This document shows positions 3,293 through 31,299 of a stretch of 64,000 nucleotides of DNA, one piece after another; position 1 is the first letter of the stretch; the number at the start of each line of letters is the position of its first letter. The notes under the pieces were generated by a model, which searched no databases, was not told where the DNA came from, and was given only the letters and a program-made list of their open reading frames with translations. Position numbers and translations under genes: made by a program. This DNA is from an uncultured Spirochaetota bacterium (GTDB lineage Bacteria > Spirochaetota > Brevinematia > Brevinematales > JAOACQ01): the NCBI GenBank assembly GCA_963768055.1, contig CAVYGN010000002.1:1696001-1760000 (forward strand). The letters run 5' to 3'.

Positions 3293-3293
3293 A

Positions 3294-4805: not shown

Positions 4806-4816
4806 TAGGCGGATGT

Positions 4817-7670: not shown

Positions 7671-7696
7671 GCCTGTAAAGGAATAGACTCTCGTAT

Positions 7697-14026: not shown

Positions 14027-17000
14027 ATGAAAATTAAAGGTTTATTAAATGAAAAATGGGGAATATTACTGTCTTTATACCTTGCGATTATCTTTTCATT
14101 TATCCCCGGCATCCTTAGACCACAAGAAAAATTCAACAGTTTCGACAATAAGGAGATGCAAAGCGAGCTTATATACGGCGATAATATAAAAAACGATGCG
14201 GACTGGCAGAACTATTCAAAGGGTGTAGAGCAGAAATTAGAAGGGGATTGGGAAACTTCCGCTTTAAATGAACTTATGCAACAGCTTGGTTTGACTGAAC
14301 ATGAGGCAATGTCCAATTCCGATTTTATAACCGCTAAAACGAACTGGGAAGCCCAGGCAAGCAATGTCATCCAGCAGATGTACGGATCGTGGCTGGCGCA
14401 AAACAAATGGAATTATGCGGTAAACGGGAGCGCAATAAGACAGTTTATAGTTCAGTATGTATGGGAAGATCAGAACGATACATCGAATATAACCGCAAAC
14501 ATATTAAGTATGCAGACCAATGTGGATGCGGAATGGTCGAATTACCTTATCTGTTACCAGGCCGGCCTCAGCGATTATCTTAATTACCTCGAAACGAATA
14601 CTCAGAATATATCATCAACCGCTATGGAGAATTATTTAGATGCTATCCAGGCTACAGCCAAGGCGCAGATGGCGGCGGCTTCCGATATAGGAAGCGAATT
14701 TATCGCACTGGAAGAAGGACAGTATATAAAATATATGGCAAGTTTTCTCGCCTACCAGCAATTCATATCCAATAACTCCCTTATAACGAACGGATTGCAA
14801 TTATCGAATAATATGGTTTCGTACATTAGCAATGCTGCGGATGCGGCAAGCAATGTAAACAGTCCTCTGACAATAGCGGAAAACGTCATACAATCCATGG
14901 ACAGCAACGAAGCCGAGATAGCCGGGCTTCTGGCAATGCCGACAAATTTCACCGATTCACCGGCAGTCGGGATAAGCGAGTGGAAAAGCATGGTCGAACA
15001 GGACTACACGGCCGGCATAAGCGAATGGGACGCGGCGATCGCGAACCTCAGCAACAGCATGATCATTTGGGAAAATAACGCTGAAAACGGATATACGAAC
15101 GGGCTCACGGAATGGGAGAATTCATACTTTATGTTAATCAGCGCCGAAATGGATTTCCAGTCCAATGTCACAGCCGACCTGACCAACAGCGAAGCCGTCT
15201 GGGGCTCGAACATCAGCGCCCAGTATGACAGCCTTAACCTCATGATAGGCACAATGACAAACCTTACGGCCCGGAATATCGATAATTTCAACAGCTACGA
15301 AAGCGGCCTGATGAATGTCCTGGTAAACGGCTCTTACGCGCTTAATGAACTGAATAAGAGCCTCGATTGGATCTCAAATACATTGAGCGTCGATGAAATT
15401 TCGAATAATTACTATTCAAATTTATACGCATCGGACATGGCTAAATCGAATCTTGATGAAAGCGAGCTAAGTTCTTCGAATACTCTTCTATCGCTATTCA
15501 ATAATTGCCAGTCCATTCTCGAACCTCTCATGGTCCTGACCGGCACCAACCGTTATTTCCAGGGAGGGGAAGGAGGAGTTGAAGCTGTTCCTGCTTACAG
15601 CGCTTCAACTAATATCGACGGTTATACCCTGACTTACAGCGGCGATAGTTATAATAATTCTTATACGGTGAACGGCAACGAAATTTATTACACCGCAAAC
15701 GGCTTTTCGTTTGAAAACAGCGAACCCGTCATGATTATAAAGTCATACATCAATAGTATTCAAAGCGATCTTAATTCAATTCAAAATGCAATACAAACCA
15801 ACAAATGGTATTATCGTCACTACTCGTCTGAAATTGGTTCCCTGAACAATGTCCTGGGAGAATGCGGGACAAATCTCGGCGCCGTGATCGGCAATGCGGC
15901 CGCCGACCTGAATTCCGAATTATATTCCGGCGATCCCGGAGCGGGAGTTCTCGCAAACGCGCTATCCAACACCGCGGATATTTACCTAATGAACAGCGCG
16001 GAAATGGATTACGCGTCCCAGCAGGACCAGGTTAACTACCTTAAACAGAACCTGGGGATAGCGCAGGCGGTCATGGATTACGCCGTTTCAAACTCCGGCG
16101 GAGGCGATATACTCAGCGCATCGAATACTTACGAAGCTGCGGTTTCGAATTATGACGTATCGACGAACGAACTTGAGGCGGAACAGGCTGCCGCCGATAG
16201 CGCTGACGTTGCAATGACAAACTATATGGAAAATATAAACGCGGCCCAGACGAATATGATCGCGGACCAGAGCAATTGCGGTATTGCACAATCCAATTAT
16301 AACGCATTCGTGACCATCCAAACAAATTTGGATTACTTTACAAGCAAGGAATATTCAAACCTTATTAATTCAAATGAAAACGCTCAGAACATTTTGTCGA
16401 ATGATTCCATTGCATATTATAGCTGCCTTGCATATTATACCGGCCTTGTCAAGGATTACTACAACGCGCTGGAGCAGGAATCGTTTACGAACAGCCTGGC
16501 CATGTCGAATTATATAACGGTAAGGGAGGACCTCGGAATTCTCGAGTGGGCCCTTATGCCGGGGATGCTCGGGATAGATAATACTTCGAACGCCTATGTA
16601 TCGGTTGCGAACTACATTAATCCGGTTTCGGATTATTCCAACGCCCTGCAGCTTTACGACACTGCGGAGAACGGGCTGGCCCGGACAAGCAATCTCATAA
16701 TAGCGGAAGAAACTCTTCCGGCAAACATGCAATCCGAGGTTAACAATTTCATCGGCGACTACAGCGATTATAGTAAACTGATGAATTTTGCCCAATCATT
16801 TATGAACCAGGAGCAGACGGTATATCAGTCGCTTGAAGGTGCTAAAAGTACTTATGATCGTGATGCTACGAATTCTTTCGGACTGTCTGCTGACGATATA
16901 GCCAGCGATCCGGTATATGCCGATGTTGTTAAGAAGATGAGCGCGGGTGCCTATACGCCTGCCGATATTATTACTATGCTTAACAACGAGATAGGCGTAA

Positions 17001-20000
17001 CCGGGGCTAACAGCGATATTTCACAGGATGAGCTTAATATAACACGCACCACAATATTGGACGATTTTTATAAGTATGTTAATACTCCTGAAGAAAGCCT
17101 TTATGAACTCGCTTTCGGGATAAGGTCCTACGATTATTTTACGAATATAGCGGGCGCGAATCTTACGGCGTTCGACAACCTCGTACACACGACTTTTCTT
17201 TCCGGCCGCGTCGATAATTCCCTGCTCAACCCCGGAGCATACGTCGACGTCCAGGGATATATAGACGGGCTTACGGCCCTTCTGTCAACCCCCGGACTCG
17301 ATCCGAATATGTCGAATGTTATCAATAACCTCGCTAATGTTCTTGCTCCCGAAGGCTCCTATTTCCAGCTTAGCAGGGGGTATATTCCTGCCATAACCAA
17401 TGTAAATATAACCCCGGCGAACACAAATTGGCCTCAGGAGGCGCCTCAGCCCATCATTACACCAGCCGTGACTAATATCACGATATCCCGACTCGGCGGA
17501 TATTATGCAGACGATACCTTCTATAATGTCAACACTAACAACGGGCGTGAGAAGATATCCGATTTATTCAAAGGCTTTATCGAAACAAACAATTCTGTTA
17601 CATATTCATGGGCGACAGTGAATCCCAATAATTACTTTGATTACAACGGCTATTATGGGAACTGGTCATATTATAATTCAGTGCTGCTGGGAATCGAGAA
17701 AAATGAAGAAACGACAATTGTAATGCCCCTGATGTCAACAATGACTAATAACCTGGCCGGAGTAATGTCGGACTGGAACGATTATTCGAACAAGAACGCC
17801 GGGTTCGCGCAGTACACTGTTTCCGGCATGGGACATTTCGTCAATTCTTCAGGGGGCATAGATGTAACAGCCGGCAATAACGGTTTTCTAAAATCGTTCA
17901 AGAACTCGCTCTCCCGGGTTTCGAATTTTTCAATCGCTCAATCCTGGCTGGCAAATACCGGCGTTTTTAATGCCGAAGAGGCTTATATAGCGGATAACCT
18001 TAGCCTGGGCAATGCCGGGACAAACGACATCGGAAGGATACTTGAAGTGTTTGAAAACGCTTTTAAGTTATATATAAATTCGGAACAATCCAATATTCAG
18101 AACGATCCCGCGTTTACAACAAACAATGACATGAAGTTATTTATTACAACTATGCTCAGCGGCGCATATTCCAACGCGGTATTCAGAGCTTCGGATGAGG
18201 CTCAACCATCATTCGTAGACGCTGCCGAGAATGCCGGCAGCCTAGCCCCGGAGGCTTTCGACATAGCCTTCCAGCAGCAGGAAACCCTGCAGGTCGATAA
18301 GTGGGCGTATATATTAACAAATATGCAGGACCAGGCGAATAGTGAAGCCGAAATGTGGGTCAATATATACAGCGCCGGAACAGAGCAGTGGAACGGGGTA
18401 ATTAACCAGTACACCAATGCAATGAGCGATTGGCAAAGCTCTTATCTGCAGGCCTGGAACAACGGGAACCAGGAATGGAACGATCAGATGAACGGCCTTA
18501 CCGGGGATAAAGCGGCTTGGATGAATGAAGCGATAAATGCTGTAAGCAACGGAAGTTCCGATTATATTCTGGACCAGCTTATGCAGTCAATCGACCAGAG
18601 GACATCGCAGTTCTTAAGCGGAGGCCTTCCTGAAGACGTCGCTTCGGCGGTCAAGAACGAGGCTTTAGACCTGGAAAACGAATTGATGCCGAAAACAAGC
18701 GAAGAATACCTGTCGTTTTTCAATAACGCGGTATCGCAGTCGAGGGAGACGGATGTAAAATTCGTACTTGACGGCATAGCCGGATATACCGGAAACGATA
18801 ACGAAACCCTCGCCCAGTTCAATAACGATATGACGGCTTTCAAGAACAGCCAGCTCGCCATAGAAGCCATAAAAATGAGGGATCAATTCGTTACCACAAT
18901 ACAGCAGTATGTCGACCAGATGAATAATACATTGGCAAGCGACGACCAGAACGAGCGGAGCAGCGAATTCTACCCGATGATCTCGGCAAAGGGCTGGACG
19001 CTCGACGGAAGCGACTGGGTCAAGAGGGGCGTGATCGTACATTCCACAATGCTCGGCGGAAACCAGCTGGAGGACTTTTCATTTGCGGATTACCAGAGTT
19101 TTACAAACCGGCTCAATTTCATAAACTACGCACCAAGCAACGTAATATCGGAGATCAACGGCGAGCAGACGGAGTACAACCTGCTCTTAGCTATGGAGGA
19201 AAGCGATATACAGGGCGATATGAGCAATACCATGGACGCTTTCGATAAACATATAGGCTCGTCGTATACGTATACGTCGAAGCCGGACATATACTCCGAC
19301 GGTACATACGACAGCCAGGGCGAACTGTACAGGACCTCATGGGCCACGACATATTACGGATACCTGCAGACGGAAGGATTGTCGGAGTCCGAAAAACCCT
19401 TCTGGGACCAAAACCTGGCCCCGGGGATAGACATATCGTTCTATTCGCTGAACGAGATCGGTCTTGCAATCGCACTTAACTTTATACCGGGTATGGGAAC
19501 TGTTGCATCAGCAGCTATATTAGCGGGCATGGCCATGACGCATGATATTGTGGATGCCGCCGCAGAACTGGGGACCGTGAACCAGGTATCCAACAGCCAG
19601 CTTGGAATAGACCTCCTCAAGGACACCATAAGCGGCGTGACAACTATGGCTACGGCGGGAATAGGTTCGGCCGCCCTCGGCGTTGTTGGAAGCGCGGTAC
19701 TTTCCACCGGCGTGCAGGACCTGAGCGGCCTGGCCGAGGAAGGACTTCACGTCAATTCGAGCGGAGATATTGATTGGAGCATGACCTCCTCGCAGTGGGG
19801 AAGCTGGGGAATGTCAAGCCTCGGTGACCTCGCAGGATCAGTCGCGGGGGCGGGGCTGGGCTCGGCGTTCGGAGGATTTGCCCAGGATGCGACCGGATTC
19901 ATGGGAGACGACCTCAGCAGCGCGTTCGGAAACGGAATACAGAATTTTACCACGTCATTCTTCACCAACACCTTCTCGACCCTCGGAAGCAATCTTGGCG

Positions 20001-21814
20001 CCGGCCTCGACTGGAACAATATGACCCTGAACCCCAGCACATGGAATATGAAGGCCGGTTCCACGATCAATATGAACTGGGGAAACATACTTAACAATTC
20101 CCTGGTAGCTGGAGCCTCCGGCTTCGCTTCGGGGCTTGCGGGGTCTTTGCTCGGCGGACAGTACAACGCCGATATGGGAGGAATGGACTATAACGGACTT
20201 ATCGGGGGTGATGCTTACAATAATTTCGCAAATGTAATAGGATCGTTCGCAGGACAGGGCGCAAACTACGAACTGAACGGAAGCTTCAACATAGACCTCG
20301 GCGCGGGTATCGGCACAAGCTATGTTAATGGCAAAGGCTTCGTGCGCAATGACGGGACATCGGGAGTAAGCCTCATAAGCTGCCTGCAGGGATTTTCCGA
20401 CTTATCGAATTCATCGAACCTGCCGGCCTTGCCTGTAAATAACAATCAGGACGCAAGCACGACGCCGGAACTCCCGCAAGCCATATTGCCTAAGGATCCA
20501 TCCGACTATATTCCGGAAAGCGATATCGTCAATCCGAATGTTCCGGACAATTCATATAGCGGAGCGAATAATGCGGCCAATCCAAATCCGAATGCGTTTA
20601 CTCCTGCAACAGTAGCTTATAATGAAATAGGGCAGCAAGTTCCACTTACTGATACACAGAGTCCTGTAGTTCCCCAGACAGTAAACCCTTATGACCATAT
20701 TTCAGACGGGAATAATTCCGGTCCGATTTTACCATATCAGCAAGTAGCAGAGCAGGCGTATCTCAATCAAAGCGATGCGTACAAGACCCAGATTTCAGAC
20801 CTTCAGAATAACCTTGGCATAGTTACGAGTGCCGGTATCATCAATACAAGTTCGGCAGTGAGCGATCTGAAGAGCGATATTCACGTAACAGATAATGCAA
20901 TGCAGCAGAATTATTCGTCATATCTCGGCAATGCCGGGATTGATGTTTCAAGATTCACAAAAGATGCTAATGGAAATATAACGAGCAACATATCTAATAA
21001 TTCCAGTTTTGTCAGCCAGGTATATCAGGACCAGGTGGATCACTATAACCGTGTTATGGATGATGCGAAGGATAATGCGGTAGTGAATGGCATAAATAAC
21101 ACATATAATGCAATGCTTTCGGCAAACAATAACGCGAATATTGTACAGAATGTTGGTTTAGGAAATGCAGGAAATATTACTGATGTTATAAACTATCAAA
21201 ACGATATCAGAAGCAATAATATTTTAAATATGAACGGCAGCAATAATGGAAACATTGTCAGCGACAGCCTGCAAAACAAAGGAAATTATTTTATGGTCGG
21301 AGAACAGGGATTGGGTTTTGGAACGCCTGCAGGCAACTATGGCGATTCTTATAGCGACCGTATCAGTGTTTTCAAAATGGATGACGCCGGTAATATTGAC
21401 TTGAAAGAATTCAACCAGTCCAATCTGGAATCGACAAACGATAAATATGATAGTAAAACCAACACTTATGATCCGACTCAGCAGCAATATTCTGACACTG
21501 CCTCTGGTATATATAATCTTACTACATATCAATGGACGGGGGAAGGACATGATTCCCCAGGAATGCAATTCTGCTTCTTAATAAATGATAAAGGGCCTGT
21601 CTCTACCAGTGATGGAATGAATAACGTTGCCTATCCATGGCAAGGTCCTATTATATATGATTCGAGAGTGCATACAGGTGGAGTTTATTGGAATGGCAGT
21701 GAAGCATGTAGCACAATAAATCCTAACGATTATTATCAGTTGATGAGTATGTTTCAAAATTCAAATGGATCATATCAATATGGAAGTCAAGGCACATATT
21801 ATCTATTAAGATAA
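14027..21814 (+). CDS. giant secreted protein, putative polymorphic toxin with C-terminal L,D-transpeptidase-like domain
   Basis: 2595 aa; GAGG RBS; N-terminal signal/TM; Trp-periodic helical repeats; Gly-rich hydrophobic region; C-terminal VHTGG-x5-SEACSTI; reminiscent of the Leptospira TIGR04388-type large proteins (not verified). Confidence 0.7.
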   Translation: MKIKGLLNEKWGILLSLYLAIIFSFIPGILRPQEKFNSFDNKEMQSELIYGDNIKNDADWQNYSKGVEQKLEGDWETSALNELMQQLGLTEHEAMSNSDFITAKTNWEAQASNVIQQMYGSWLAQNKWNYAVNGSAIRQFIVQYVWEDQNDTSNITANILSMQTNVDAEWSNYLICYQAGLSDYLNYLETNTQNISSTAMENYLDAIQATAKAQMAAASDIGSEFIALEEGQYIKYMASFLAYQQFISNNSLITNGLQLSNNMVSYISNAADAASNVNSPLTIAENVIQSMDSNEAEIAGLLAMPTNFTDSPAVGISEWKSMVEQDYTAGISEWDAAIANLSNSMIIWENNAENGYTNGLTEWENSYFMLISAEMDFQSNVTADLTNSEAVWGSNISAQYDSLNLMIGTMTNLTARNIDNFNSYESGLMNVLVNGSYALNELNKSLDWISNTLSVDEISNNYYSNLYASDMAKSNLDESELSSSNTLLSLFNNCQSILEPLMVLTGTNRYFQGGEGGVEAVPAYSASTNIDGYTLTYSGDSYNNSYTVNGNEIYYTANGFSFENSEPVMIIKSYINSIQSDLNSIQNAIQTNKWYYRHYSSEIGSLNNVLGECGTNLGAVIGNAAADLNSELYSGDPGAGVLANALSNTADIYLMNSAEMDYASQQDQVNYLKQNLGIAQAVMDYAVSNSGGGDILSASNTYEAAVSNYDVSTNELEAEQAAADSADVAMTNYMENINAAQTNMIADQSNCGIAQSNYNAFVTIQTNLDYFTSKEYSNLINSNENAQNILSNDSIAYYSCLAYYTGLVKDYYNALEQESFTNSLAMSNYITVREDLGILEWALMPGMLGIDNTSNAYVSVANYINPVSDYSNALQLYDTAENGLARTSNLIIAEETLPANMQSEVNNFIGDYSDYSKLMNFAQSFMNQEQTVYQSLEGAKSTYDRDATNSFGLSADDIASDPVYADVVKKMSAGAYTPADIITMLNNEIGVTGANSDISQDELNITRTTILDDFYKYVNTPEESLYELAFGIRSYDYFTNIAGANLTAFDNLVHTTFLSGRVDNSLLNPGAYVDVQGYIDGLTALLSTPGLDPNMSNVINNLANVLAPEGSYFQLSRGYIPAITNVNITPANTNWPQEAPQPIITPAVTNITISRLGGYYADDTFYNVNTNNGREKISDLFKGFIETNNSVTYSWATVNPNNYFDYNGYYGNWSYYNSVLLGIEKNEETTIVMPLMSTMTNNLAGVMSDWNDYSNKNAGFAQYTVSGMGHFVNSSGGIDVTAGNNGFLKSFKNSLSRVSNFSIAQSWLANTGVFNAEEAYIADNLSLGNAGTNDIGRILEVFENAFKLYINSEQSNIQNDPAFTTNNDMKLFITTMLSGAYSNAVFRASDEAQPSFVDAAENAGSLAPEAFDIAFQQQETLQVDKWAYILTNMQDQANSEAEMWVNIYSAGTEQWNGVINQYTNAMSDWQSSYLQAWNNGNQEWNDQMNGLTGDKAAWMNEAINAVSNGSSDYILDQLMQSIDQRTSQFLSGGLPEDVASAVKNEALDLENELMPKTSEEYLSFFNNAVSQSRETDVKFVLDGIAGYTGNDNETLAQFNNDMTAFKNSQLAIEAIKMRDQFVTTIQQYVDQMNNTLASDDQNERSSEFYPMISAKGWTLDGSDWVKRGVIVHSTMLGGNQLEDFSFADYQSFTNRLNFINYAPSNVISEINGEQTEYNLLLAMEESDIQGDMSNTMDAFDKHIGSSYTYTSKPDIYSDGTYDSQGELYRTSWATTYYGYLQTEGLSESEKPFWDQNLAPGIDISFYSLNEIGLAIALNFIPGMGTVASAAILAGMAMTHDIVDAAAELGTVNQVSNSQLGIDLLKDTISGVTTMATAGIGSAALGVVGSAVLSTGVQDLSGLAEEGLHVNSSGDIDWSMTSSQWGSWGMSSLGDLAGSVAGAGLGSAFGGFAQDATGFMGDDLSSAFGNGIQNFTTSFFTNTFSTLGSNLGAGLDWNNMTLNPSTWNMKAGSTINMNWGNILNNSLVAGASGFASGLAGSLLGGQYNADMGGMDYNGLIGGDAYNNFANVIGSFAGQGANYELNGSFNIDLGAGIGTSYVNGKGFVRNDGTSGVSLISCLQGFSDLSNSSNLPALPVNNNQDASTTPELPQAILPKDPSDYIPESDIVNPNVPDNSYSGANNAANPNPNAFTPATVAYNEIGQQVPLTDTQSPVVPQTVNPYDHISDGNNSGPILPYQQVAEQAYLNQSDAYKTQISDLQNNLGIVTSAGIINTSSAVSDLKSDIHVTDNAMQQNYSSYLGNAGIDVSRFTKDANGNITSNISNNSSFVSQVYQDQVDHYNRVMDDAKDNAVVNGINNTYNAMLSANNNANIVQNVGLGNAGNITDVINYQNDIRSNNILNMNGSNNGNIVSDSLQNKGNYFMVGEQGLGFGTPAGNYGDSYSDRISVFKMDDAGNIDLKEFNQSNLESTNDKYDSKTNTYDPTQQQYSDTASGIYNLTTYQWTGEGHDSPGMQFCFLINDKGPVSTSDGMNNVAYPWQGPIIYDSRVHTGGVYWNGSEACSTINPNDYYQLMSMFQNSNGSYQYGSQGTYYLLR
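20273..20518 (+). repeat. 246-bp direct repeat, copy 1 (pre-toxin homology block)
   Basis: Identical to 23570-23815 except for 2 substitutions. Confidence 0.95.
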
Positions 21815-22896
21815 TGGATTGTAATATGAAAAATATGGTAATTATAATTATTTTCACAATAATAAGTTTTAAACTTTATGCTGCTTCAATAGAAATTGCT
21901 GGAGACGATATTTTTCACCATGATATTTTTACAAAAACTATTATTGATCCTGATAATGGTGATCCCATTGAATATAATATATTTAATTTCTTCGATAATA
22001 ATCAGAAAACTGCAGTAGTTATAAATGCTAAATTTAGGCAAAATGATGATATATTTAAATATCCATTTTTTAGAATAAGCTTAAAAAAACAATATAATAT
22101 TGATAAATTAGTGTTCTATAATGGTTTCCAAATAAATGATGATTTATATAATAAAAATAGCAGGGTAAAAGAGATTCAAATTACATTTTTTCTTGAAAAT
22201 AAAATTTTTGTAAATGAAGGGGAAATTTATAATGATGTAATCATTGATGAAAAAGGGAGAAAGCAAAAAATTGTAATTGAATGGACAAATATTATAACGA
22301 CGAACTGTATTTTGCTTGATACAAAAGGAAAACAAATAATTGAATTTCCTGAAGTTAACGCAAATAATTTAAAAATCGATGTATTAACCTACTATTCAGG
22401 CACTCAGTATGATGATATCTGTATAAGCAAGCTTGAGTTCTGGTACAGGGGCGAGAAGTACCAAGTGACTAATCTTAAGGAAGCAAAGAAAGAATATGTT
22501 AAATTGTATATTGCACATGTTCTTAATTCATTGGAACCGGGTGTATTTTTGCATGATATGGAAGAAAATAATTATAACAGACTTATCAAGATAGCAGGGT
22601 GGAAATATGAACAATCTGAAAGCAGGCAGGTTGGAATATTTTTTGAAAAATCTGGAGAAATAAAAATCCATCGATTTTTGCTATCATCCGTCAAAGATCG
22701 TGATTTATTCCCAACTAAAATCATCGGAAAATGGAAATTCGATAATGAAGGAAGACTATTCATTATGATAGGTAATGGGCAATTTAAATTGTCGCAAGGG
22801 AAAAGTATTTTTACAAGTTCATCTACGGAAAAAGGGCCGTATTTTGTTGGAACTGATCTTGAATTTGAAGGTATTATGGAACCATCGAGACCTTAG
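21814..22896 (+). CDS. putative immunity protein 1 (exported; discoidin/NADase-type glycan-binding-like domain)
   Basis: TAATG stop/start overlap with the giant gene; signal peptide; YNGFQ..Y.KNSR.K and YDDICISKLEFW motifs; very AT-rich. Confidence 0.65.
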   Translation: MDCNMKNMVIIIIFTIISFKLYAASIEIAGDDIFHHDIFTKTIIDPDNGDPIEYNIFNFFDNNQKTAVVINAKFRQNDDIFKYPFFRISLKKQYNIDKLVFYNGFQINDDLYNKNSRVKEIQITFFLENKIFVNEGEIYNDVIIDEKGRKQKIVIEWTNIITTNCILLDTKGKQIIEFPEVNANNLKIDVLTYYSGTQYDDICISKLEFWYRGEKYQVTNLKEAKKEYVKLYIAHVLNSLEPGVFLHDMEENNYNRLIKIAGWKYEQSESRQVGIFFEKSGEIKIHRFLLSSVKDRDLFPTKIIGKWKFDNEGRLFIMIGNGQFKLSQGKSIFTSSSTEKGPYFVGTDLEFEGIMEPSRP

Positions 22897-22926
22897 ATAC
22901 ATATAAATCAACAAAGAGGCTAACTA

Positions 22927-23229
22927 ATGGACAACAAAAACAAGCCATCCGGCGTTCCCGTTAAATTCCAGGACACCGCGAATAAAGTAGCATACTCCAA
23001 CTTCGCTCTGATCAACAACTCGTCGGAGGAGTTCCTGCTGGACTTCGGCAATATCACCCCCGGCAAGGAGGGAGTGGAGGTATTCAGCAGGATAGCGCTC
23101 TCCCCCCGCAACGCGAAGCTGTTCCTGAGCGGGCTTATGGAGCGTGTGAAGAAGTTTGAAGAACAGTTTGGCCCGATCAAGCCGCCAGAGGCGGTGGAGG
23201 TAGAGGCGATGAACGGGAGAGATAAGTGA
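22927..23229 (+). CDS. DUF3467 family protein, copy 1
   Basis: AYSNFALINNSSEEFLLDFG..SRIALSP.NAK.....L...V.KFE..FG.I signature. Confidence 0.8.
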   Translation: MDNKNKPSGVPVKFQDTANKVAYSNFALINNSSEEFLLDFGNITPGKEGVEVFSRIALSPRNAKLFLSGLMERVKKFEEQFGPIKPPEAVEVEAMNGRDK

Positions 23230-23550
23230 CGATTAACGATTGTCGAATGACGATTGAAACCAGGTAATAGTAAAGATTATGATTATAGAACAAAGGTTAG
23301 CGAACAACCCCCGCCTGCGAGGGAAGCGCCCGGGGGTTGATCCTTGTAAAGCAGGCCGTCCGCGAAAAACGGCGGTAAGCCCTGCCCCTTATCGATATCT
23401 GTTTTTTTATAAAAGAATTCGTTCGCTTAAATTAAAAACCTTAAGGGGCGGGACAGCCGTTTTGAGCGGTTGCAGTTCATGCTTCCCGAGCCCAGCGGGG
23501 GCGGTTTCTTTCGGTTCGCTTTCTTTGCCGGCCAAAGAAAGCGAACAGGG
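23227..23550. repeat. structured non-coding repeat element, copy 1
   Basis: Heptamer repeats, nested inverted repeats and terminal 14-bp hairpin GTTCGCTTTCTTTG/CAAAGAAAGCGAAC; second copy at 27901-28248. Confidence 0.8.
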
Positions 23551-23569
23551 GGCCAGGCATATCTCCGCC

Positions 23570-23815
23570 CTGAACGGAAGCTTCAACATAGACCTCGGCG
23601 CGGGTATCGGCACAAGCTATGTTAATGGCAAAGGCTTCGTGCGCAATGACGGGACATCGGGAGTAAGCCTCAGAAGCTGCCTGCAGGGATTTTCCGATTT
23701 ATCGAATTCATCGAACCTGCCGGCCTTGCCTGTAAATAACAATCAGGACGCAAGCACGACGCCGGAACTCCCGCAAGCCATATTGCCTAAGGATCCATCC
23801 GACTATATTCCGGAA
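23570..23815 (+). repeat. 246-bp direct repeat, copy 2
   Basis: Matches 20273-20518 with 2 mismatches. Confidence 0.95.
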
Positions 23816-25084
23816 GACGATGTTGTTAATACGAATCCTTCAAATAATACTTGGGCTGACCCTGGGCTTGCCGCTTCAAACGTAGTGAATAATGTGACCA
23901 ATCCGGCTCCGAATGTATTTAATCCTGCTAATGTGGCTTATAATGAAATAGGACAGCAAGTTCCACTTACTGATATGCAAAATTCTTCGTTATCGCAGAA
24001 AGTAGACCCGAATGATCATATTTCTATTGGCAGTGCCGCTCTTCAGGATTTGCTTTACAAAAATGGGGAATACAGCAATCAGCTCAAAACACTTCAGAAT
24101 GATATGAGTACTGTTCAGGGTGTTGGGTTAAATAATGCTAGTTCTATTGTTGGAGACCTCAAAAATGATTTTAAATCAACAGACAGCTTAATGCAACAGA
24201 ATTATACATCTTATCTGAGTGATAACAATATTAATGTATCAACATTCAAAGTCAATTCAGATGGCAGCGTGTCCAGCAATATATCGAATAATTCTTATGT
24301 CAACAATCAACTTTATCAGGAACAAAAAGATCATTACACTAATATCGCAAACGAAATGAATAATAGTTATCAAACTAATGAAATAAATAACACGATTAAT
24401 ACGCTTCAAAGTGTCGGGTTAAACAACTCGGCGGCACCGAGTATCGATCCGGCGATCTCAGATATGAAGGACCAGATAACTATAATAAATAACAGCTATA
24501 ATAAAAATATTCTTAGTAATGGTCTGAATAATAATAACAGATATGATTTTATAGGGGAAGAAGGACGCGGAAACTATCAGCAAACAGGTCCTGATTATTA
24601 CGGCGACAGAATTACTGTACTTCAGAAAGATGCGAGCGGTAATATCAATTTCGATGAGTTCAACAGATCCAACCTTGAATCGACTAATGATCCCTCATTA
24701 GACAGAAAAGACTATGATCCAGCAAAAGGCGGATTTCAATCAACTGCAGCTGGTATATATTCGCTTACAGCAAGCGGCGATACATCTAATCTTAACTCAC
24801 AAGATATACCATTAATATTTAGCGTAAATGACGGGCAAAACATACCGACAGAGGGAAATCAAAATAACGCATATAACTATAATACGCCTTACATGAACCA
24901 GATTCTTGTTCATGAAGGCGGCGACAACTATAACTGGAGCGCGGGATGCTCTACGATATATATTGATGATTACCCAGCATTAGCGAACTTATTTGGGAAT
25001 TATAATTCGCAGACAAAGAAATTTATACCTTATGCAGGAAGTTATTCGGCAATAGGAAGCGGTACATATTATCTTTACAGGTAA
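23570..25084 (+). pseudogene. orphan alternative C-terminus cassette of the giant protein
   Basis: Begins with the 246-bp repeat in the same reading frame; then a divergent but homologous CT with VHEGG-x5-SAGCSTI and terminal GTYYLYR; no signal peptide; the ORF-track start at 23279 lies inside the structured element. Confidence 0.75.
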
Positions 25085-25093
25085 AAGAAGGTT

Positions 25094-26053
25094 ATGAAAG
25101 TTAAAATTATGATAATTCTCAGTCTACTAATAATCTATTCATGTATAAATGCATCAAAAATTGAATTAGATGGAATAGAGAGGGGGAAACTTGGACTTAT
25201 TTATACAATATTTGGTGAAGATAATAGCCCCCTAAAATATAATGAATTTAATTTATTGGATAAGAATTTGAAAACAGCTTCTGCTATCAGCAAAAGTAAT
25301 TGTTCACCTGAAGATTCAATACCATGGTTCAATATATTTTTTAAAAAAGAATTCCCTGTTGATAAAATTGTAATCTATAATGGATTTCAATTGAATATGA
25401 CAGTTTATCAATTAAATGACAGACCCAATGAAGTAAAAATCGATTCACAAAATGAGAGTGATGATTCCACAAATTATTCATTTGTTACAAACATTCAACT
25501 ATTAGATATTACTAATAGTCAGGAACTTTTATTAAATAAAGAAATTAGAATAAAAAATTTTGGTATAGGTGTCCTTTCCACCTATCCAGGTACAAAGTAC
25601 GACGACATCTGTTTAAGCAAGCTTGAATTCTGGTACAAGGGCGAGAAGTATAATGTTGCAAATCTTGAAGAAGCCAAGAAAGAATATATTAAGACATACA
25701 TCCAGAGATGCCTTCATTGGATATTATCATATTATTATATAAACTCTATCAATCCTGAAGGGATGGATAAATTAGATAAACTTGCGGGAATAAAGAAAAC
25801 GGTAGAATTAGGATATGACACATGTATAAATTTTGAAAAGAGCGGAGATATCAAAGTGATACCGGCACTGGAAGATAATAAGGTAAGGGTACATGTCGGC
25901 AGCTGGAAATTCGACGATGAAGGAAGGCTATGGATTAAATTAGACAATGGCGACTGGAAGGTATCAAAAAGTTCCGAATCGAATGTTAATTTTGGCAAAA
26001 GACATTTTATCGGGACCGATCTCGATTGTGTTATTGCAGGTTGGGGTGGGTGA
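25094..26053 (+). CDS. putative immunity protein 2, paralog of 21814-22896
   Basis: Signal peptide; YNGFQ, YDDICLSKLEFWYKGEKY, G.WKFD.EGRL, F.GTDL shared with paralog; starts 10 bp after the orphan CT stop. Confidence 0.65.
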   Translation: MKVKIMIILSLLIIYSCINASKIELDGIERGKLGLIYTIFGEDNSPLKYNEFNLLDKNLKTASAISKSNCSPEDSIPWFNIFFKKEFPVDKIVIYNGFQLNMTVYQLNDRPNEVKIDSQNESDDSTNYSFVTNIQLLDITNSQELLLNKEIRIKNFGIGVLSTYPGTKYDDICLSKLEFWYKGEKYNVANLEEAKKEYIKTYIQRCLHWILSYYYINSINPEGMDKLDKLAGIKKTVELGYDTCINFEKSGDIKVIPALEDNKVRVHVGSWKFDDEGRLWIKLDNGDWKVSKSSESNVNFGKRHFIGTDLDCVIAGWGG

Positions 26054-26115
26054 TATTGATGATATTTAGAAAATTACTTTTATTAAAAAATAATAATCGA
26101 GCAAGAGGCTAACTA

Positions 26116-26478
26116 ATGGACAACAAAAACAACACCAAACCATCGGGCGTTCCTGTCAAATTCCAGGACACCGCCAATAAAGTAGCATACTCCAACTTTG
26201 CGCTGATCAACAATTCGTCCGAAGAGTTCCTGCTGGACTTCGGAACGATCACGCCCGGAAGGGAAGGGGTTGAGGTGTTTGGCAGGATAGCGCTTTCTCC
26301 CCGCAACGCGAAGCTGTTCCTCCAGGGTCTGGCTGAAAGAGTAAAAAAGTTTGAAGAACAATATGGCCCGATCAAGCCGCCGGAGGCGGTGGAGGTGCTT
26401 GTCCTGAATTCCCGCCAGAATTCAGGGCTTGCGCCTGTGGTGGAGGCGATTAACAAGGGAGAGCATCATCTAAAATAA
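26116..26478 (+). CDS. DUF3467 family protein, copy 2 (15-aa in-frame hairpin insertion)
   Basis: Near-identical to copy 1; extra LVLNSRQNSGLAPVV encoded by 26398-26442. Confidence 0.8.
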   Translation: MDNKNNTKPSGVPVKFQDTANKVAYSNFALINNSSEEFLLDFGTITPGREGVEVFGRIALSPRNAKLFLQGLAERVKKFEEQYGPIKPPEAVEVLVLNSRQNSGLAPVVEAINKGEHHLK

Positions 26479-26523
26479 ATTTAAAATAAGTCCAAAGAAA
26501 ATATAATTTATGGAGGTTTTTGC

Positions 26524-27543
26524 ATGAAAATAAGATTAACCAATCTATTGCTTGCTTTAATATTGTTCGGTGGAGCTATTTTAACAGTTTTATCTGTTTT
26601 ATCCGGAGCAGTTTTAACTGGTTGTTCGCTTTTCAATTCATCAAGTTCTTCATCTGCGACATCGACTGCCTCATCGTCTGGTCCTACTGTATATACTGCC
26701 GGGCAGGACAGTAGCGGTAACGCATGTTACTGGACAGGAACTACCGAAACACAGTTTACATCTTCTGGAAACGGAGCAAAAGCTTACTCTATCTTTGTAT
26801 ATAATGGAACTGTATATACTGCCGGGCAGGACGGCAGTGGTTACGCATGCTGTTGGGTAGGGTTTACCGAAACACAGTTGACATTTGCTGGACATGGAGC
26901 AATTATACACTCTATCTTTGTATATAATGGGAATGTTTATGCTGCCGGGCAGGACAGTTCCGGTCATGCCTGTTACTGGGGGCCAGGATGGTCACAGAAT
27001 ACTCTCAATTCAGGCAGCAGTGTTGCCGATGCAATTTTTGTTTCTGATGGAACAGTATATACCGCCGGATTTGTTACCGGTGCTAATGTTTGCTACTGGA
27101 CGGGAACTTCCGAAACACCTTTAACAGCCGGTAGCGGTGCTGCTACGTCGATCTTTGTTTATAATGGAACAATTTATACTTCAGGTAATGATATTAGCCT
27201 AAATGAGTGCTATTGGACAGGAACAACAGAAACCCCTTTGCCCGGTGGAAGCTATAGTGGCGGGAGTTATTATCCATGGGCAGGGGCGATCTTTGTATAT
27301 AATGGAATTGTTTATATTGCTGGGCGGGACAGCAGCAGGAACGCTTGTTACTGGACAGGAACTTCAGAAACACAGTTGACAACGGCTGGCGGCAGCGCTT
27401 TTGCAGACTCAATCTATGTATACAATGGAACTGTATATACTGCCGGGCAGGACAGCAGTGGTAACGAATGTTACTGGACAGGAACTAATGAGACTAAGCT
27501 ATTAAGCGGAGCATCTGTAAATTCAATCTTTGTAGTACCCTAA
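26524..27543 (+). CDS. beta-propeller repeat lipoprotein
   Basis: LTGC lipobox, poly-Ser linker, seven ~41-aa repeats SIFVYNGTVYTAGQDSSGNACYWTGTTETQL. Confidence 0.8.
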   Translation: MKIRLTNLLLALILFGGAILTVLSVLSGAVLTGCSLFNSSSSSSATSTASSSGPTVYTAGQDSSGNACYWTGTTETQFTSSGNGAKAYSIFVYNGTVYTAGQDGSGYACCWVGFTETQLTFAGHGAIIHSIFVYNGNVYAAGQDSSGHACYWGPGWSQNTLNSGSSVADAIFVSDGTVYTAGFVTGANVCYWTGTSETPLTAGSGAATSIFVYNGTIYTSGNDISLNECYWTGTTETPLPGGSYSGGSYYPWAGAIFVYNGIVYIAGRDSSRNACYWTGTSETQLTTAGGSAFADSIYVYNGTVYTAGQDSSGNECYWTGTNETKLLSGASVNSIFVVP

Positions 27544-27758
27544 ATATCTATAAATAATTACATAGTCAATTTTAATACGCTATTTTATCTGGGAAATATG
27601 GGATAAGAGCCTTTTTTAATATCTACGCAACTGAGGAATTCGGTATCTAAAACTATTACGCGAGGAATTTTTCAATGAAAAAGGGGGGGGCAATCATGGC
27701 ATTTTTAGAATACAAAGGTAAGATGATTAATCTTGATGATGACTAAGAAAGTGGTGAT

Positions 27759-27903
27759 GCGGAACGGGCCTGTCCCTGATGTCGGCTCAGGGATGAGGAA
27801 GTATGAGGAGCAATTTGCCCCGATCAAGCCGTCCGAGGCGCTTGTCCCTGAGCATACTGCTCAGGGGGTGGAAGTTGAGGCGATAAACGGGAGAGATAAG
27901 TGA
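27759..27903 (+). pseudogene. 3' remnant of a third DUF3467 copy
   Basis: Encodes AER(V)RKYEEQFAPIKPSEA..VEVEAINGRDK*, interrupted by 25-nt and 27-nt hairpin insertions. Confidence 0.75.
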
Positions 27904-28248
27904 CGATTGCCGATTATCGAATGACGATTGAAACCAGGTAATAGTAAAGATTATGATTATAGAACAAAGGTTAGCGAATAACCCCCGCCTGCGAGGGAAG
28001 CGCCCAAAGTTTTATCCTTGTGTTGAAAGCCGCCCGCGAAAAACGGCGGTAAGCCCCGCCCCTTATCGATTTTTGTTTTTTTATAAAAGAATTTGTTCTT
28101 GTAAATTAAAAACCTTAAGGGGCGGGACAGCCGTTTTGAGCGGTTGCTACCCATGCTTGCCGAGCAAAGCGGGGGCTTGTGCCTGCCGTCAGGCAGGTGC
28201 GGTTTCTTTCGGTTCGCTTTCTTTGCCGGACAAAGAAAGCGAACAGGG
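27901..28248. repeat. structured non-coding repeat element, copy 2
   Basis: Colinear with 23227-23550 plus a 24-nt hairpin insertion at 28176-28199. Confidence 0.8.
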
Positions 28249-28381
28249 AAACGGCATCGAATGCGAATCTGTAGTAAAAGTCCAGCTAAGGGATTGTACC
28301 GGGCTGAAGAGCGAGGGTAATGATTGTATTTTTTAAGTAAAATAAGTTTGAAGAAAACATAATATTTATGGAGGTTTTTAT

Positions 28382-28963
28382 ATGAAGAAAAGATTAACCA
28401 AGGTTTGCGCCATTTTATCTGCCGGAGTTTTTATGGTGATGATATCAATAGTTTCCGTCAGCATTTTCTCAGTAGCTTTATCCGGATGTTCGAATTCGCC
28501 AGGGTCATCGAGTTCTTCTAGTTCATCGGCTCCCGCTCCGACTCAATTGACGATCGTTAATTCTTCATCTGAAAGGTTAGGCTTTATTGAATGGCCTCTA
28601 GGAAGCGCCCAAGGTACATTTTTTGGATATGATGCATGGGTTACTGGTACTATTTCTTATTCTGGTTTATTTGTCGGAGACAGCGCTACTAAAGATGTTT
28701 CGCCCGGTTCCGGTTACGTTTATTTTTATCCCGATAACGGAATCTTTACAGAATATCATACAGTTGAATTAGTTACAGTGTCGAATAATCAGTCTGTTAC
28801 ATTTACTTTCACAGGCTCAACATTGGTCGTAGTCGGCCTAAAAAAATCCGGTCAAACCAATATTCAATATATACCGGTTATACCTTCAATATCTGTAATT
28901 CCTTCCATATCATATGATGAAGTAACAAACAGTTATTTTAAATTTATGGAAGGGAACAGATGA
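28382..28963 (+). CDS. hypothetical lipoprotein
   Basis: GGAGG RBS, long signal peptide with LSGC, poly-Ser linker. Confidence 0.7.
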   Translation: MKKRLTKVCAILSAGVFMVMISIVSVSIFSVALSGCSNSPGSSSSSSSSAPAPTQLTIVNSSSERLGFIEWPLGSAQGTFFGYDAWVTGTISYSGLFVGDSATKDVSPGSGYVYFYPDNGIFTEYHTVELVTVSNNQSVTFTFTGSTLVVVGLKKSGQTNIQYIPVIPSISVIPSISYDEVTNSYFKFMEGNR

Positions 28964-29005
28964 TGAAATTTTACTGCAAGTGTATTCAATGAATAAAGAG
29001 GAAAA

Positions 29006-29227
29006 ATGATAACGGACTGGGATGAGTTCAAGGTTTGGTGCGGATGCGGCAGCAGGCTCAAGGTCCTCATATTTAATACGGCTGATAATAATGACATTAC
29101 TGAATATAACTGCCCTGAATGCGGGAAAGAGTTTACGGCGATATCCGCTATAAAGCCGAAGGTGAAACTGATTAACAGAAGGAATAACGCTGGATCGGAA
29201 TTTGAAGCTTCGACTCCGGATTTGTAA
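29006..29227 (+). CDS. small zinc-ribbon protein
   Basis: GAGG RBS; CGC...CPEC cysteine pairs. Confidence 0.55.
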   Translation: MITDWDEFKVWCGCGSRLKVLIFNTADNNDITEYNCPECGKEFTAISAIKPKVKLINRRNNAGSEFEASTPDL

Positions 29228-29289
29228 TTTCACCTTCATATACTACTTTTTTAAAATATTTCAGGGGCTAAATAATCGTAAAGCAATAT

Positions 29290-31299
29290 ATGTTTAATTT
29301 TAAAATAAGGCCGCAAACAGCTATCTTATTCCTGATCTTGATTTTATCTTTCTGGCTGAACTATTTCAAAATTCATGATATAGGGTATGGAAATAGTTAT
29401 TATGCCGCAGCTGTCAGGAGCATGCTCGCAAACTTGCATAATTTTTTTTTCGCCGCCTACGATCCCGGAGGGTTTGTATCGATAGATAAACCTCCTGTCG
29501 CTTTGTGGGTTCAATGCTTGAACGCTTCGATATTCGGTTTTCACGGTTGGGCTTTACTATTGCCTCAGGCATTGGCCGGGGTGGTTTCAGTCTTGCTGCT
29601 TTATAAAATTGTCCGAAAAAATTTCGGCGAGGCCGCGGGCTTTCTGGCTGCGGGAATACTAGCCATAACTCCGGTTTTTGTTGCGGTAAACAGGACTAAT
29701 GAAGTTGACCCGATCTTGATCATGATCATAATGTTAGCAGCTGTGGCAGTAAATTCAGCCACTCAAAAAGGAAGTATGCCCCTGCTCTTGCTTTCAATGT
29801 GTTTAATTGGACTCGGTTTTAATACCAAAATGCTTCAAGCCTTTCTTGTAATTCCCGCGTTTTACGTTTTATATATAATTTCATCTCCGGTCAAAATCGG
29901 CAGAAAAGTTATAGATCTAAGCATTGCAACAGTTATATTACTGGTGATCTCATTGTCTTGGGCCTTTATCGTGGATACGGTCCCTGCAAGAGACAGGCCG
30001 TATTCCGGGAGCAGCAATAAAAATTCGGAAATTAATCTTGCCTTATTTTATAACGGAATATTCAGGATCATTCCCGAGCCCGTTTCCTACCCCATACGTC
30101 ATAACAAGGCTTATCAAATCCTGATTAAAAAATCAAGTTCCGTATTTAATAATAATATTCAATCGGAAATGAATGAATTTGCGAAGGGGAAATGGACTAC
30201 CGGAGGGGAAATCGGCTATCCGGGCTTACTTCGATTTTTTAATCAGCAAATGGCGGGGCAGATAAGCTGGCTGTTGCTGATAACTTTTTCTGGGATTATT
30301 GTTTACATTATAGGGATTAAAAAAACAGTCTTAAAAGACCAAAAACTGGAAACAGGATCTGTATTATTCTGGAGTTTCTGGGTTTTTCTGATGATGGCAT
30401 GTTTCAGTGAGGCCTCTTTTTTCCATAGATACTATCTGGCTCTGCTTGCTCCCGGTATGGCCGCTTTGTCCGGAATAGGTATTTGTAAATTAAATGATGA
30501 ATATTTAAAAAAAGAACGGTTATGGTGGATGCTTCCTGTTTCAATAACTTTGAATGCAGGTTTGCAGTTTATATTTTTATCAAGATACCCCGGTTGGTTT
30601 TTTGCGATGGTTCCAGCAATTCTCGGATTATGCATTATTTCTTCAGGTATTTTAATCTTTATAAGGTTATCCGGAAAACTTCAAAATAAAATCTTTGTCA
30701 ATATTATAGTAACAATCAGCTGTGTTGGCCTTTTCATCGCACCATTAATCTGGTCGTTAACTCCAATTTTATTCGGCGATCAAATCGCGATACCTTTTGC
30801 AGGGCCGGAACTTAAAGACGGAAAGGAATATTATTTCAATTATTTTCTTGATAACCGAATTGATGATAAAAAAGTTGTAGAATTTTTAATAAATAATAAT
30901 AAGGGTGAGAGGTATTTAGCAGGTGTCCCGAACTCCTTTATAGCCTCACAGATAATTATCGATACAGGCATGCCTGTTATGGCTATGGGCGGATATATGG
31001 GTGCCGATAACATTTTATCAATTGATGATTTAAAGAAAATGCTTGACCAGGGACAAGTCAGATTTTTTTTAATTTATAAGATACCTTCTAATATGAAAAA
31101 TATTCAAAAGATAACTATAACAGATCAATTTTCTAATATTGAAAAATTATCCGGATGGATTTCAAAAAATGGGAAACCTGTAGATGAAAATTCCTGGATG
31201 GATAAAGAAAGCAATAGTTATGGAAGTAATTCTATAAGTGAATCCGGTAATCATATCCGGGTGGAACTGCAATTGTATGACCTCAGGCCAAAAGGATGA
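29290..31299 (+). CDS. ArnT/PMT-like (GT39, YkcB-type) membrane glycosyltransferase
   Basis: GNSYYAAAVRSM, DPGGFVSIDKPP, GFNTKMLQA, PVMAMGGY motifs; multi-TM. Confidence 0.85.
   Translation: MFNFKIRPQTAILFLILILSFWLNYFKIHDIGYGNSYYAAAVRSMLANLHNFFFAAYDPGGFVSIDKPPVALWVQCLNASIFGFHGWALLLPQALAGVVSVLLLYKIVRKNFGEAAGFLAAGILAITPVFVAVNRTNEVDPILIMIIMLAAVAVNSATQKGSMPLLLLSMCLIGLGFNTKMLQAFLVIPAFYVLYIISSPVKIGRKVIDLSIATVILLVISLSWAFIVDTVPARDRPYSGSSNKNSEINLALFYNGIFRIIPEPVSYPIRHNKAYQILIKKSSSVFNNNIQSEMNEFAKGKWTTGGEIGYPGLLRFFNQQMAGQISWLLLITFSGIIVYIIGIKKTVLKDQKLETGSVLFWSFWVFLMMACFSEASFFHRYYLALLAPGMAALSGIGICKLNDEYLKKERLWWMLPVSITLNAGLQFIFLSRYPGWFFAMVPAILGLCIISSGILIFIRLSGKLQNKIFVNIIVTISCVGLFIAPLIWSLTPILFGDQIAIPFAGPELKDGKEYYFNYFLDNRIDDKKVVEFLINNNKGERYLAGVPNSFIASQIIIDTGMPVMAMGGYMGADNILSIDDLKKMLDQGQVRFFLIYKIPSNMKNIQKITITDQFSNIEKLSGWISKNGKPVDENSWMDKESNSYGSNSISESGNHIRVELQLYDLRPKG

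Follow-up and report, generated by a model that had tools for sequence, protein, structure and literature searches.

A probable polymorphic toxin-immunity locus with an orphan cassette behind a giant gene in an uncultured Brevinematales spirochaete

Orphan toxin cassettes are the way in which contact-dependent inhibition (CDI) and Rhs systems store and exchange weapons. The orphan cdiA-CT/cdiI modules of CDI are described by Poole et al. 2011 (PMC3150448), where, in the parts cited here, an orphan is a 3' fragment headed by homology to the main gene upstream of the variable region, has its own immunity gene and lies in tandem behind the main gene, with tips that differ between related genomes. 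In Salmonella Typhimurium LT2, according to the parts of Koskiniemi et al. 2014 (PMC3967940) used here, recombination between main and orphan rhs deploys the orphan toxin, an event that was both observed and selected experimentally. For the toxins themselves, an excerpt of Zhang et al. 2012 (PMC3482391) gives a Tox-LD-peptidase class with a conserved H, S and C and a link to RHS repeats. Here we analyse a stretch of 64,000 nucleotides, called the window below, from an uncultured Spirochaetota bacterium of the Brevinematales (assembly GCA_963768055.1, contig CAVYGN010000002.1, positions 1,696,001 to 1,760,000). It contains a main gene for a giant protein of 2595 residues (14027..21814) and, downstream, a second copy of the 3' end of that gene, with a near-identical block of 246 bp at the start of the shared part. 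The locus probably encodes polymorphic toxins and their immunity proteins, belongs to an undescribed family and includes an orphan cassette, with the block as the homology arm; the orphan-cassette reading appears well supported by the architecture and by comparison with relatives. The principle is the one known from CDI and Rhs, and what is new is its position behind an unannotated giant-protein family with a three-gene cassette.

The block is found at 20273..20518 inside the giant gene and at 23570..23815 at the head of the orphan module (main gene, blocks, tips, immunity-like genes, DUF3467 genes with their remnant and intergenic elements are all on the plus strand). In the pairwise alignment the two copies have 244 of 246 nucleotides in common, the 2 mismatches being one T/G and one C/T, and the repeat finder reports the region as 20266-20539 against 23563-23836, 274 nt at 96% with a spacing of 3297. 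A search of the whole genome (3,688,977 bases in 2 contigs, 94.75% complete) gives exactly these two copies, with E-values of 2e-125 and 1e-122, a match far beyond chance. To the left the copies share no similarity: there, coding sequence of the giant gene leads into copy 1 and an intergenic element into copy 2. Copy 1, the candidate 5' homology arm, comprises 82 codons, for the last ~44 residues of a pre-toxin segment and then a Pro/Asn/Ser linker ending in YIPE; in relatives, the conservation of the pre-toxin segment extends into the block.

Both copies are in the same frame. The block begins 6246 nt after the start of the giant open reading frame (ORF; 20273-14027) and 291 nt after the first ATG of the second ORF, 23279-25084 (23570-23279), and the spacing of the copies is 3 x 1099. 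All three numbers are multiples of three, so that a crossover anywhere in the block would yield an open fusion in which, from the coordinates, residues 1-2082 of the giant protein are followed by the product of the second copy's 504 codons. An earlier reading of the sequence without database searches (the sequence-only reading) had proposed the in-frame repeat, the fusion of the giant N-terminus to the second C-terminus and the anatomy of main toxin gene plus downstream orphan toxin/immunity module, and the identity of the block, its count in the genome, the frame arithmetic and the low synonymous divergence given below all agree with it.

A ladder of weaker repeats, at spacings of 3172-3321, reveals that the block belongs to a tandem unit of ~3.2-3.3 kb that has diverged and in which nothing is preserved as well as the block itself. 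There are three genes per unit, for a toxin C-terminus, an immunity-like protein with a signal peptide and a DUF3467 protein. The C-termini (CT1, 20519..21811, and CT2, 23816..25084, open to its stop) are 49% identical in amino acid sequence and alignable to the last residue (E 8e-137). The immunity-like proteins (Imm1, 21814..22896, and Imm2, 25094..26053) are 37% identical and the two DUF3467 proteins (22927..23229 and 26116..26478) 87%. The toxin tip and the immunity gene have diverged strongly together. The sequence-only reading was correct in giving the second copy its own immunity-like gene, which adjoins CT2, but the duplicated module is larger than it stated and includes the DUF3467 gene and a conserved intergenic element. 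The second C-terminus is indeed in frame and diverged, yet it is not "different" in kind: the two tips are paralogues and share the predicted fold and the putative catalytic residues.

The divergence along the unit is very uneven. In bins of 40 codons, both bins of the block have a nucleotide identity of 0.99; the two bins that follow have 0.68 and 0.74, and all later ones 0.43-0.64. The synonymous divergence (Nei-Gojobori dS) of the two block bins is 0 and 0.04, that of the two adjoining bins 0.66 and 0.81, and further on dS is saturated. The abrupt drop that had been noted after YIPE is therefore real (0.99 to 0.68), however it does not reach background, as CT1 and CT2 remain alignable throughout. 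The dS of the block is about 20-fold below that of the adjoining DNA, and near-zero dS next to such strongly diverged DNA means that the duplication is old and that the block alone was homogenised recently. This could have happened through gene conversion between the copies, or through the import of a cassette via a crossover in the block; under either route the block seems to have acted as a homology arm in the recent past. In the first 60 codons of the DUF3467 genes dN, the nonsynonymous divergence, is 0.03 against a dS of 0.8, so these genes have been retained by purifying selection.

We compared the locus with relatives using the pre-toxin segment (residues 1659-2164 of the giant protein) as a query against 41 genomes, the window's own included. 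The query matches seven of the 41, among them one (G003) of the four other genomes of the genus; with this query, the giant gene is present in two of the five genomes of the genus. The G003 orthologue has 2482 residues and lies at the syntenic site. The body of the giant protein is 41-44% identical between the two, against 71% for the neighbouring AcrB upstream. The main LD-peptidase tip of G003 is 35-40% identical and is followed by an Imm homologue and DUF3467.

In G003, the equivalent of the block is 146 bp long (L029:7577-7722), encodes ...SGISAAAGAIG...AAFEGTPA and occurs at four places, with further copies at L029:10857, L029:13490 and L030:4087 (96-99% identity). After the junction ...AAFEGTPA, the main gene and the third orphan continue into an LD-peptidase tip, and orphans 1 and 2 into LysM-containing regions (Pfam LysM, E 5e-9 and 3e-10) with two different C-termini; the 124-residue protein encoded downstream of orphan 1 has, by eye, a membrane-embedded look. 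The sequence-only reading had suggested looking in related genomes for different C-termini behind the same block, and G003 provides at least three of them behind its four copies. Moreover, about 3 kb of the G003 main stretch (block, tip, immunity gene and DUF3467) recurs at the third orphan position with 99-100% identity; here sequence appears to have moved recently between the main and the orphan positions. The units of G003 each end in a DUF3467 gene (5 DUF3467 matches in the 26.6 kb of L029/L030), and each orphan is preceded by a 99-nt piece of the intergenic element with its palindrome, in 4 copies that are 79-80% identical to the window, where the part kept is 23454-23548. The third-orphan copy is split by three insertions, one with rve, one with HTH_Tnp_1 and rve, and one with IstB plus a Mu-transposase-type protein. 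Overall, four gene sets of insertion-sequence (IS) type are found in the orphan array (L030:535-1854, 4604-5500, 6595-8111 and 9027-11336), the first of type DDE_Tnp_1_4, and three of the four break up the main tip and immunity gene as copied to the third orphan position.

G018, from the same order but more distantly related, has a stretch of 54 kb (L032-L034, G018:C1:378001-432000) with at least seven ORFs in which the pre-toxin segment stands at the start or further inside and whose continuations vary. The LD-peptidase domain forms the end of two of these ORFs, each with an Imm homologue directly behind it. The stretch contains three Imm-family genes, one DUF3467 copy and no giant gene. As there is only one DUF3467 copy in this array, a DUF3467 gene in every cassette seems particular to the genus of the window.

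Taken as a working system, the locus would operate as follows. The N-terminal signal or anchor (residues ~10-32) of the 2595-residue main protein would direct its export, and the protein would present or deliver its tip to neighbouring cells, where the predicted L,D-peptidase would damage the peptidoglycan; Imm1 in the periplasm of the producer would prevent self-harm. The orphan module would start with 82 codons from the end of the delivery region, followed by CT2, Imm2 and a DUF3467 gene. RecA-type recombination in the block would replace CT1, Imm1 and the first DUF3467 gene by CT2, Imm2 and the second, either by a deletion of 3297 bp or, without loss, by conversion or duplication. The deployed toxin would then change while Imm2 is already in place. 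As described for LT2 rhs, in the parts of that paper used here, a cryptic toxin would acquire a start of translation and signals for export through the fusion of main and orphan, but there the event was observed and here we infer it from the sequence.

The toxin domain was studied in the last 214 residues of CT1 (21170-21811), which also give the residue numbering; the predicted LD-peptidase (YkuD-fold) domain covers ~21257-21811, according to an alignment (A3), an AlphaFold2 model and fold searches. The domain is rare. Of the 1.84 billion representatives covered by an exhaustive HMMER search with the 214 residues, 13 proteins reached E<=0.001, including one fragment identical to CT1 and one CT2-like ORF. 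In P0003 and P0004, two unrelated carriers, an RHS repeat-associated core (TIGR03696, E 1e-17 and 3e-18, above the cut-off) directly precedes the domain, which thus serves elsewhere as an Rhs toxin tip. A Pfam scan of 7 other carriers gave no match, and CT2 has no Pfam, NCBIfam or PADLOC family at the thresholds used. The alignment contains 17 sequences: CT1, CT2, 8 from the relatives' genomes and 7 from the HMMER search. Ten positions are invariant (Gly47, Gly49, Asp63-Arg64-Ile65, Tyr115, His168, Ser177, Cys180 and Phe195), with His168, Ser177 and Cys180 conserved in 17 of 17 sequences, both tips of the window included.

The AlphaFold2 model built on this alignment has a mean pLDDT (predicted local distance difference test) of 79.4 and a pTM (predicted TM-score) of 0.78. 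The top rows of a Foldseek search are mostly L,D-transpeptidases, with E-values of 0.011-0.1. An aligner independent of Foldseek, run against 48,161 representative chains, gives 50 chains at Z>=2, and 19 of the top 20 (Z 10.4 to 5.4) are of L,D-transpeptidase/carboxypeptidase type, judged by the entry title or, for part of them, by the family to which we take them to belong. The best matches are Pgp2 (Z 10.4, root-mean-square deviation 3.8, 123 aligned residues), Csd6 (Z 10.0) and Bd1075 (Z 9.1). LdtA, LdtMt2, LdtMt5, Ldtfm, YcbB, DpaA and Tlde1a (PDB 7uma, Z 7.0) are also in the top 20, the last reportedly a type VI secretion system (T6SS) effector of YkuD fold with Tldi1 as immunity partner. 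The odd one among the 20 is a peptidoglycan-binding amidase/peptidase fusion, and at rank 21 the Z-score falls to 3.1. Searches of PDB sequences with the toxin family, by phmmer and by profile, found nothing relevant. A comparison by hhalign of the alignment with the one Pfam-YkuD protein of the genome gave a probability of 1.5%, which says little as the alignment has long unaligned N-termini. On the strength of the predicted structure and the conserved residues, we take both tips to be L,D-peptidase toxins directed at peptidoglycan, whose site of action must be the periplasm.

With the Tox-LD-peptidase class, as outlined in the part of PMC3482391 used here, the tips share the YkuD-type fold, here on a predicted model, and the conserved His, Ser and Cys. 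Like that class and like Tlde1a, they would be periplasm-acting antibacterial toxins paired with an exported, here putative, immunity protein. However, their sequence similarity is below the family thresholds, only 8 residues separate the His from the Ser-x-Gly/Ala-Cys motif, and an invariant N-terminal beta-extension, GEEGxG...DRIT, sets them apart from both. The partners named in the same part of the paper are Imm16 and Imm57, and a family with discoidin and C-terminal domain such as the one found here is not among them; nor are spirochaetes among the phyla it lists.

The protein encoded directly after each tip has the features expected of such a partner. Imm1 (360 residues; the likelier start is the ATG at 21826) carries a signal peptide and an NADase-type discoidin glycan-binding domain, and matches Pfam PF25302 (E 9.5e-10) and NCBIfam NF047619 (E 1.2e-16). 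Imm2 (319 residues) belongs to the same family in the Pfam and NCBIfam scans, has a signal peptide with a lipobox-like Cys and is preceded by a ribosome-binding site, AGAAGG, 5 nt before its ATG. Both open with a hydrophobic signal sequence, and these two are the only full-length members of the family in the genome. Eight loci of the relatives contain the toxin domain, and seven of them have downstream DNA, the eighth stopping at the contig end. In six of the seven, the next ORF after the toxin domain is of the same Imm family (329-410 residues), and these ORFs have the motif STYPGTxYDDxCxSxIEF in common; in the seventh, a 153-residue form, truncated as judged by eye, lies beside a transposase-like ORF. 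A complex prediction of CT1 residues 30-214 with Imm1 residues 26-360 scored 0.00 in two runs that had no controls. An exported partner conserved beside a periplasm-acting toxin is the pattern expected of an immunity protein, and Imm1 and Imm2 are putative periplasmic immunity proteins.

The giant protein has no described relatives in the libraries scanned. A hydropathy scan shows a hydrophobic signal or anchor at residues ~10-32. The body (14027-20272, 2082 residues) is long and Asn/Ser-rich (11.7% Asn and 10.4% Ser), and two Gly/Ala-rich hydrophobic segments near residues 1813-1892 are followed by the conserved pre-toxin segment and then by CT1. No family was found in Pfam (E<=0.1), NCBIfam (E<=0.01) or PADLOC, and a word-index search for relatives returned only the protein itself among 7,998 scored candidates. 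A protein-atlas comparison gave low scores (best 0.82, DUF637 0.80, PT-TG 0.76), which are leads only. In contrast to CDI, no TPS (two-partner secretion) domain, FHA (filamentous haemagglutinin) repeats, VENN motif or CdiB partner is recognised by the libraries scanned, the junction motif is YIPE instead of VENN, and the genes upstream are an RND (resistance-nodulation-division) efflux operon with an OEP, an HlyD-type and two AcrB-type proteins. Unlike Rhs toxins, the protein has neither YD repeats nor an RHS core ending in DPxGL in the Pfam and NCBIfam scans. Two further differences concern the cassette: compared with the CDI orphans in the cited parts of PMC3150448, main and orphan tip are paralogues here instead of unrelated toxins, and each cassette has a third gene, for DUF3467, together with a conserved palindromic intergenic element.

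Several points weigh against the proposed toxin-immunity locus with its recombining orphan cassette. The deletion junction or an excised circle is present in no read, contig or relative, and the metagenome runs are thin contigs that are unable to reveal one: contigs from freshwater sediment carry the stretch at >=99% identity in 3 runs of one study, sediment or soil only, and the pieces over the stretch are 31 short contig pieces at depth 2-4, with no joints; no RNA run is listed among those that carry it. No secretion or trafficking family matched the giant protein in the Pfam and NCBIfam scans. The assignment of the YkuD fold stands on a predicted model, for which Foldseek gave no PDB match at E<=0.001, and the toxin domain is under the gathering score of Pfam YkuD (PF03734) in both tips; CT1 does not match PF03734 even at E<=10, and the match of CT2, which covers the catalytic part of the profile, has an E-value of 0.21 and a score of 12.6 bits where 23.4 are required. 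As CT1 and CT2 are of the same toxin family, a swap alters specificity and not the mode of action, and its benefit depends on Imm1 and Imm2 not cross-protecting. The silence of CT2 is put in question by the frame that is open to ATG 23279 and by a conserved sigma-70-like match at 23254-23283. Finally, the three IS insertions in the G003 orphan mean that orphan positions can simply decay.

This decay is central to another explanation, in which the 3' end of the gene underwent a tandem duplication long ago that left CT2, Imm2 and the second DUF3467 gene as drifting remnants without a part in switching, and in which the identical block is due to one chance conversion. The unit boundaries, where the end of the intergenic element is joined to the start of the block, are what a simple tandem duplication gives, the two tips are paralogues of one family, the orphan copy of G003 is broken by the three IS elements, and no recombinant molecule is seen among the thin metagenome contigs. 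Drifting leftovers are, however, difficult to reconcile with a CT2 that is intact over 504 codons in spite of 51% amino acid divergence and retains all ten alignment-invariant residues, with an Imm2 that has kept its signal peptide and ribosome-binding site, and with the strong purifying selection on the second DUF3467 gene. In addition, duplication and drift cannot produce the unrelated tips behind the same block in G003. We therefore regard this explanation as rather unlikely, and a recombining orphan cassette as the better account of the locus.

A more far-reaching version of that account would make the DUF3467 genes and the intergenic element working parts of the system. DUF3467 gene 1 (22927..23229) encodes 100 residues (Pfam PF11950, E 2.6e-16) and is the conserved third gene of the cassette, and gene 2 (26116..26478, recognised by Pfam) encodes 120 residues. 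A third DUF3467 gene has left a remnant of its 3' end at 27794..27902 (repeat family D8, alignment A2). Every cassette in the window and in G003 terminates in a DUF3467 gene, whose conservation far exceeds that of the toxin and immunity genes; an additional copy is found elsewhere in the genome (C2:706952-707197). Homologues at 56-92% identity bear Brevinematales source names. The family is mentioned by a single paper of the literature searched and is essentially unstudied, and its structure model (pLDDT 55.7, pTM 0.30) is too poor for a fold search.

Intergenic element 1 (23230..23562, 333 nt) ends 7 nt before block copy 2, and element 2 (27903..28248), behind the third DUF3467 remnant, is alignable with it apart from two insertions. 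Genome-wide the element is restricted to this locus, and for this reason we rejected the idea that it is a multi-copy promoter from an IS end. Element 1 contains a perfect 31-nt palindrome at 23515-23545 (of the type TTCGCTTTCTTTGCC/GGCAAAGAAAGCGAA). A U-tail is absent on both strands, which rules out a classical terminator. Besides the palindrome, the RNA fold of the element is unremarkable (z -2.4), and an Rfam scan of 19500-29500 gave only two sub-threshold chance matches to miRNA families. The DUF3467 genes and the palindromic element might insulate or drive the expression of the orphan immunity gene, or aid switching. That the locus represents an undescribed family of giant Sec-exported toxins confined to Brevinematales-like spirochaetes, with an exchangeable three-gene cassette, a handle kept by conversion and the DUF3467 genes and element as working parts, is in its entirety a speculative proposal, to which we give little weight.

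According to a further explanation, the ORF 23279-25084 is not part of a silent module but an independent gene for a protein of 601 residues, e.g. a housekeeping or released L,D-peptidase. This ORF crosses intergenic element 1 and is open back to its ATG at 23279; a sigma-70-like match, TTGAAA-18-TATGAT, at 23254-23283 is conserved in both intergenic elements, and gene callers elsewhere have called an ORF at this place (the protein P0013). However, the ATG sits within the putative -10 hexamer and there is no evident Shine-Dalgarno sequence. The first 97 residues are rich in Arg, Lys, Pro and Cys and form a leader that has no signal peptide, even though the predicted enzyme would act outside the cytoplasm, and the paralogous element changes the leader residues radically. 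The leader frame is also lost in L031, a public contig of a metagenome-assembled genome labelled Gemmataceae (1-nt indel), and in P0013 (shifted frame and another start), where a sequencing error is possible in both cases. The sigma-70-like site might instead serve the expression of Imm2; for E. coli EC93, a section heading of PMC3150448 reports expression of an orphan cdiI. An independent gene is thus improbable, and CT2 may be silent within the orphan module.

An assembly artefact, i.e. a collapsed or duplicated stretch, which the sequence-only reading had named as a refuter, is very improbable even in a genome that appears metagenome-derived and whose stretch is found in sediment and soil metagenome runs only: each copy is bounded by unique, well-defined flanks, two fixed differences tell the copies apart, the congener G003 has the same layout, and the junction of intergenic element, block and CT2 is spanned both by L031 (97.3% identity of its positions 1-1263 to window 22920-24179) and by the independently called P0013.

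L031 was also considered as a case of another tip behind the block and was rejected, since after 1263 nt it continues into high-GC, Gemmataceae-labelled sequence; this switch to sequence of a different character means that the contig end is most likely chimeric. Within the matching part, 17 of the 19 diagnostic sites in a patch at the CT2 coordinates 23873-23935 are CT1-like, and further on all 103 of 103 sites are CT2-like. The patch could be due to gene conversion or, equally, to mis-mapped polishing reads in the most similar part of the paralogues, and we do not use it as evidence.

If an orphan cassette is indeed kept here, the logic of CDI and Rhs is found behind a giant protein that has no recognisable secretion or repeat domains, which would make the strategy independent of the delivery machine and would extend it to a little-studied spirochaete lineage. 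The locus would also offer a first functional context for a rare, unannotated LD-peptidase domain and for a discoidin-type family of periplasmic immunity proteins, and maybe for DUF3467. The near-zero dS of the handle against the old divergence of its flanks makes the switching hypothesis directly testable.

The array ends with intergenic element 2, which is followed by a lipoprotein-like gene of 193 residues (28382-28963) and not by a third toxin tip, so the array consists of one main gene and one orphan. Another lipoprotein-like gene, of 339 residues, lies at 26524-27543; it contains about 8-9 degenerate repeats of ~40 residues (...IFVYNGTVYTAGQDSSGNACYWTG..; DNA repeat families D1 and D3) and has no significant family match. 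The start regions of the two lipoprotein-like genes are 85% identical, which suggests a further local duplication.

Upstream, the efflux operon contains at 4817-7670 two paralogues with Big_5 (bacterial Ig-like) domains, of 481 and 494 residues, between the HlyD-type and the two AcrB-type genes, an unusual operon composition.

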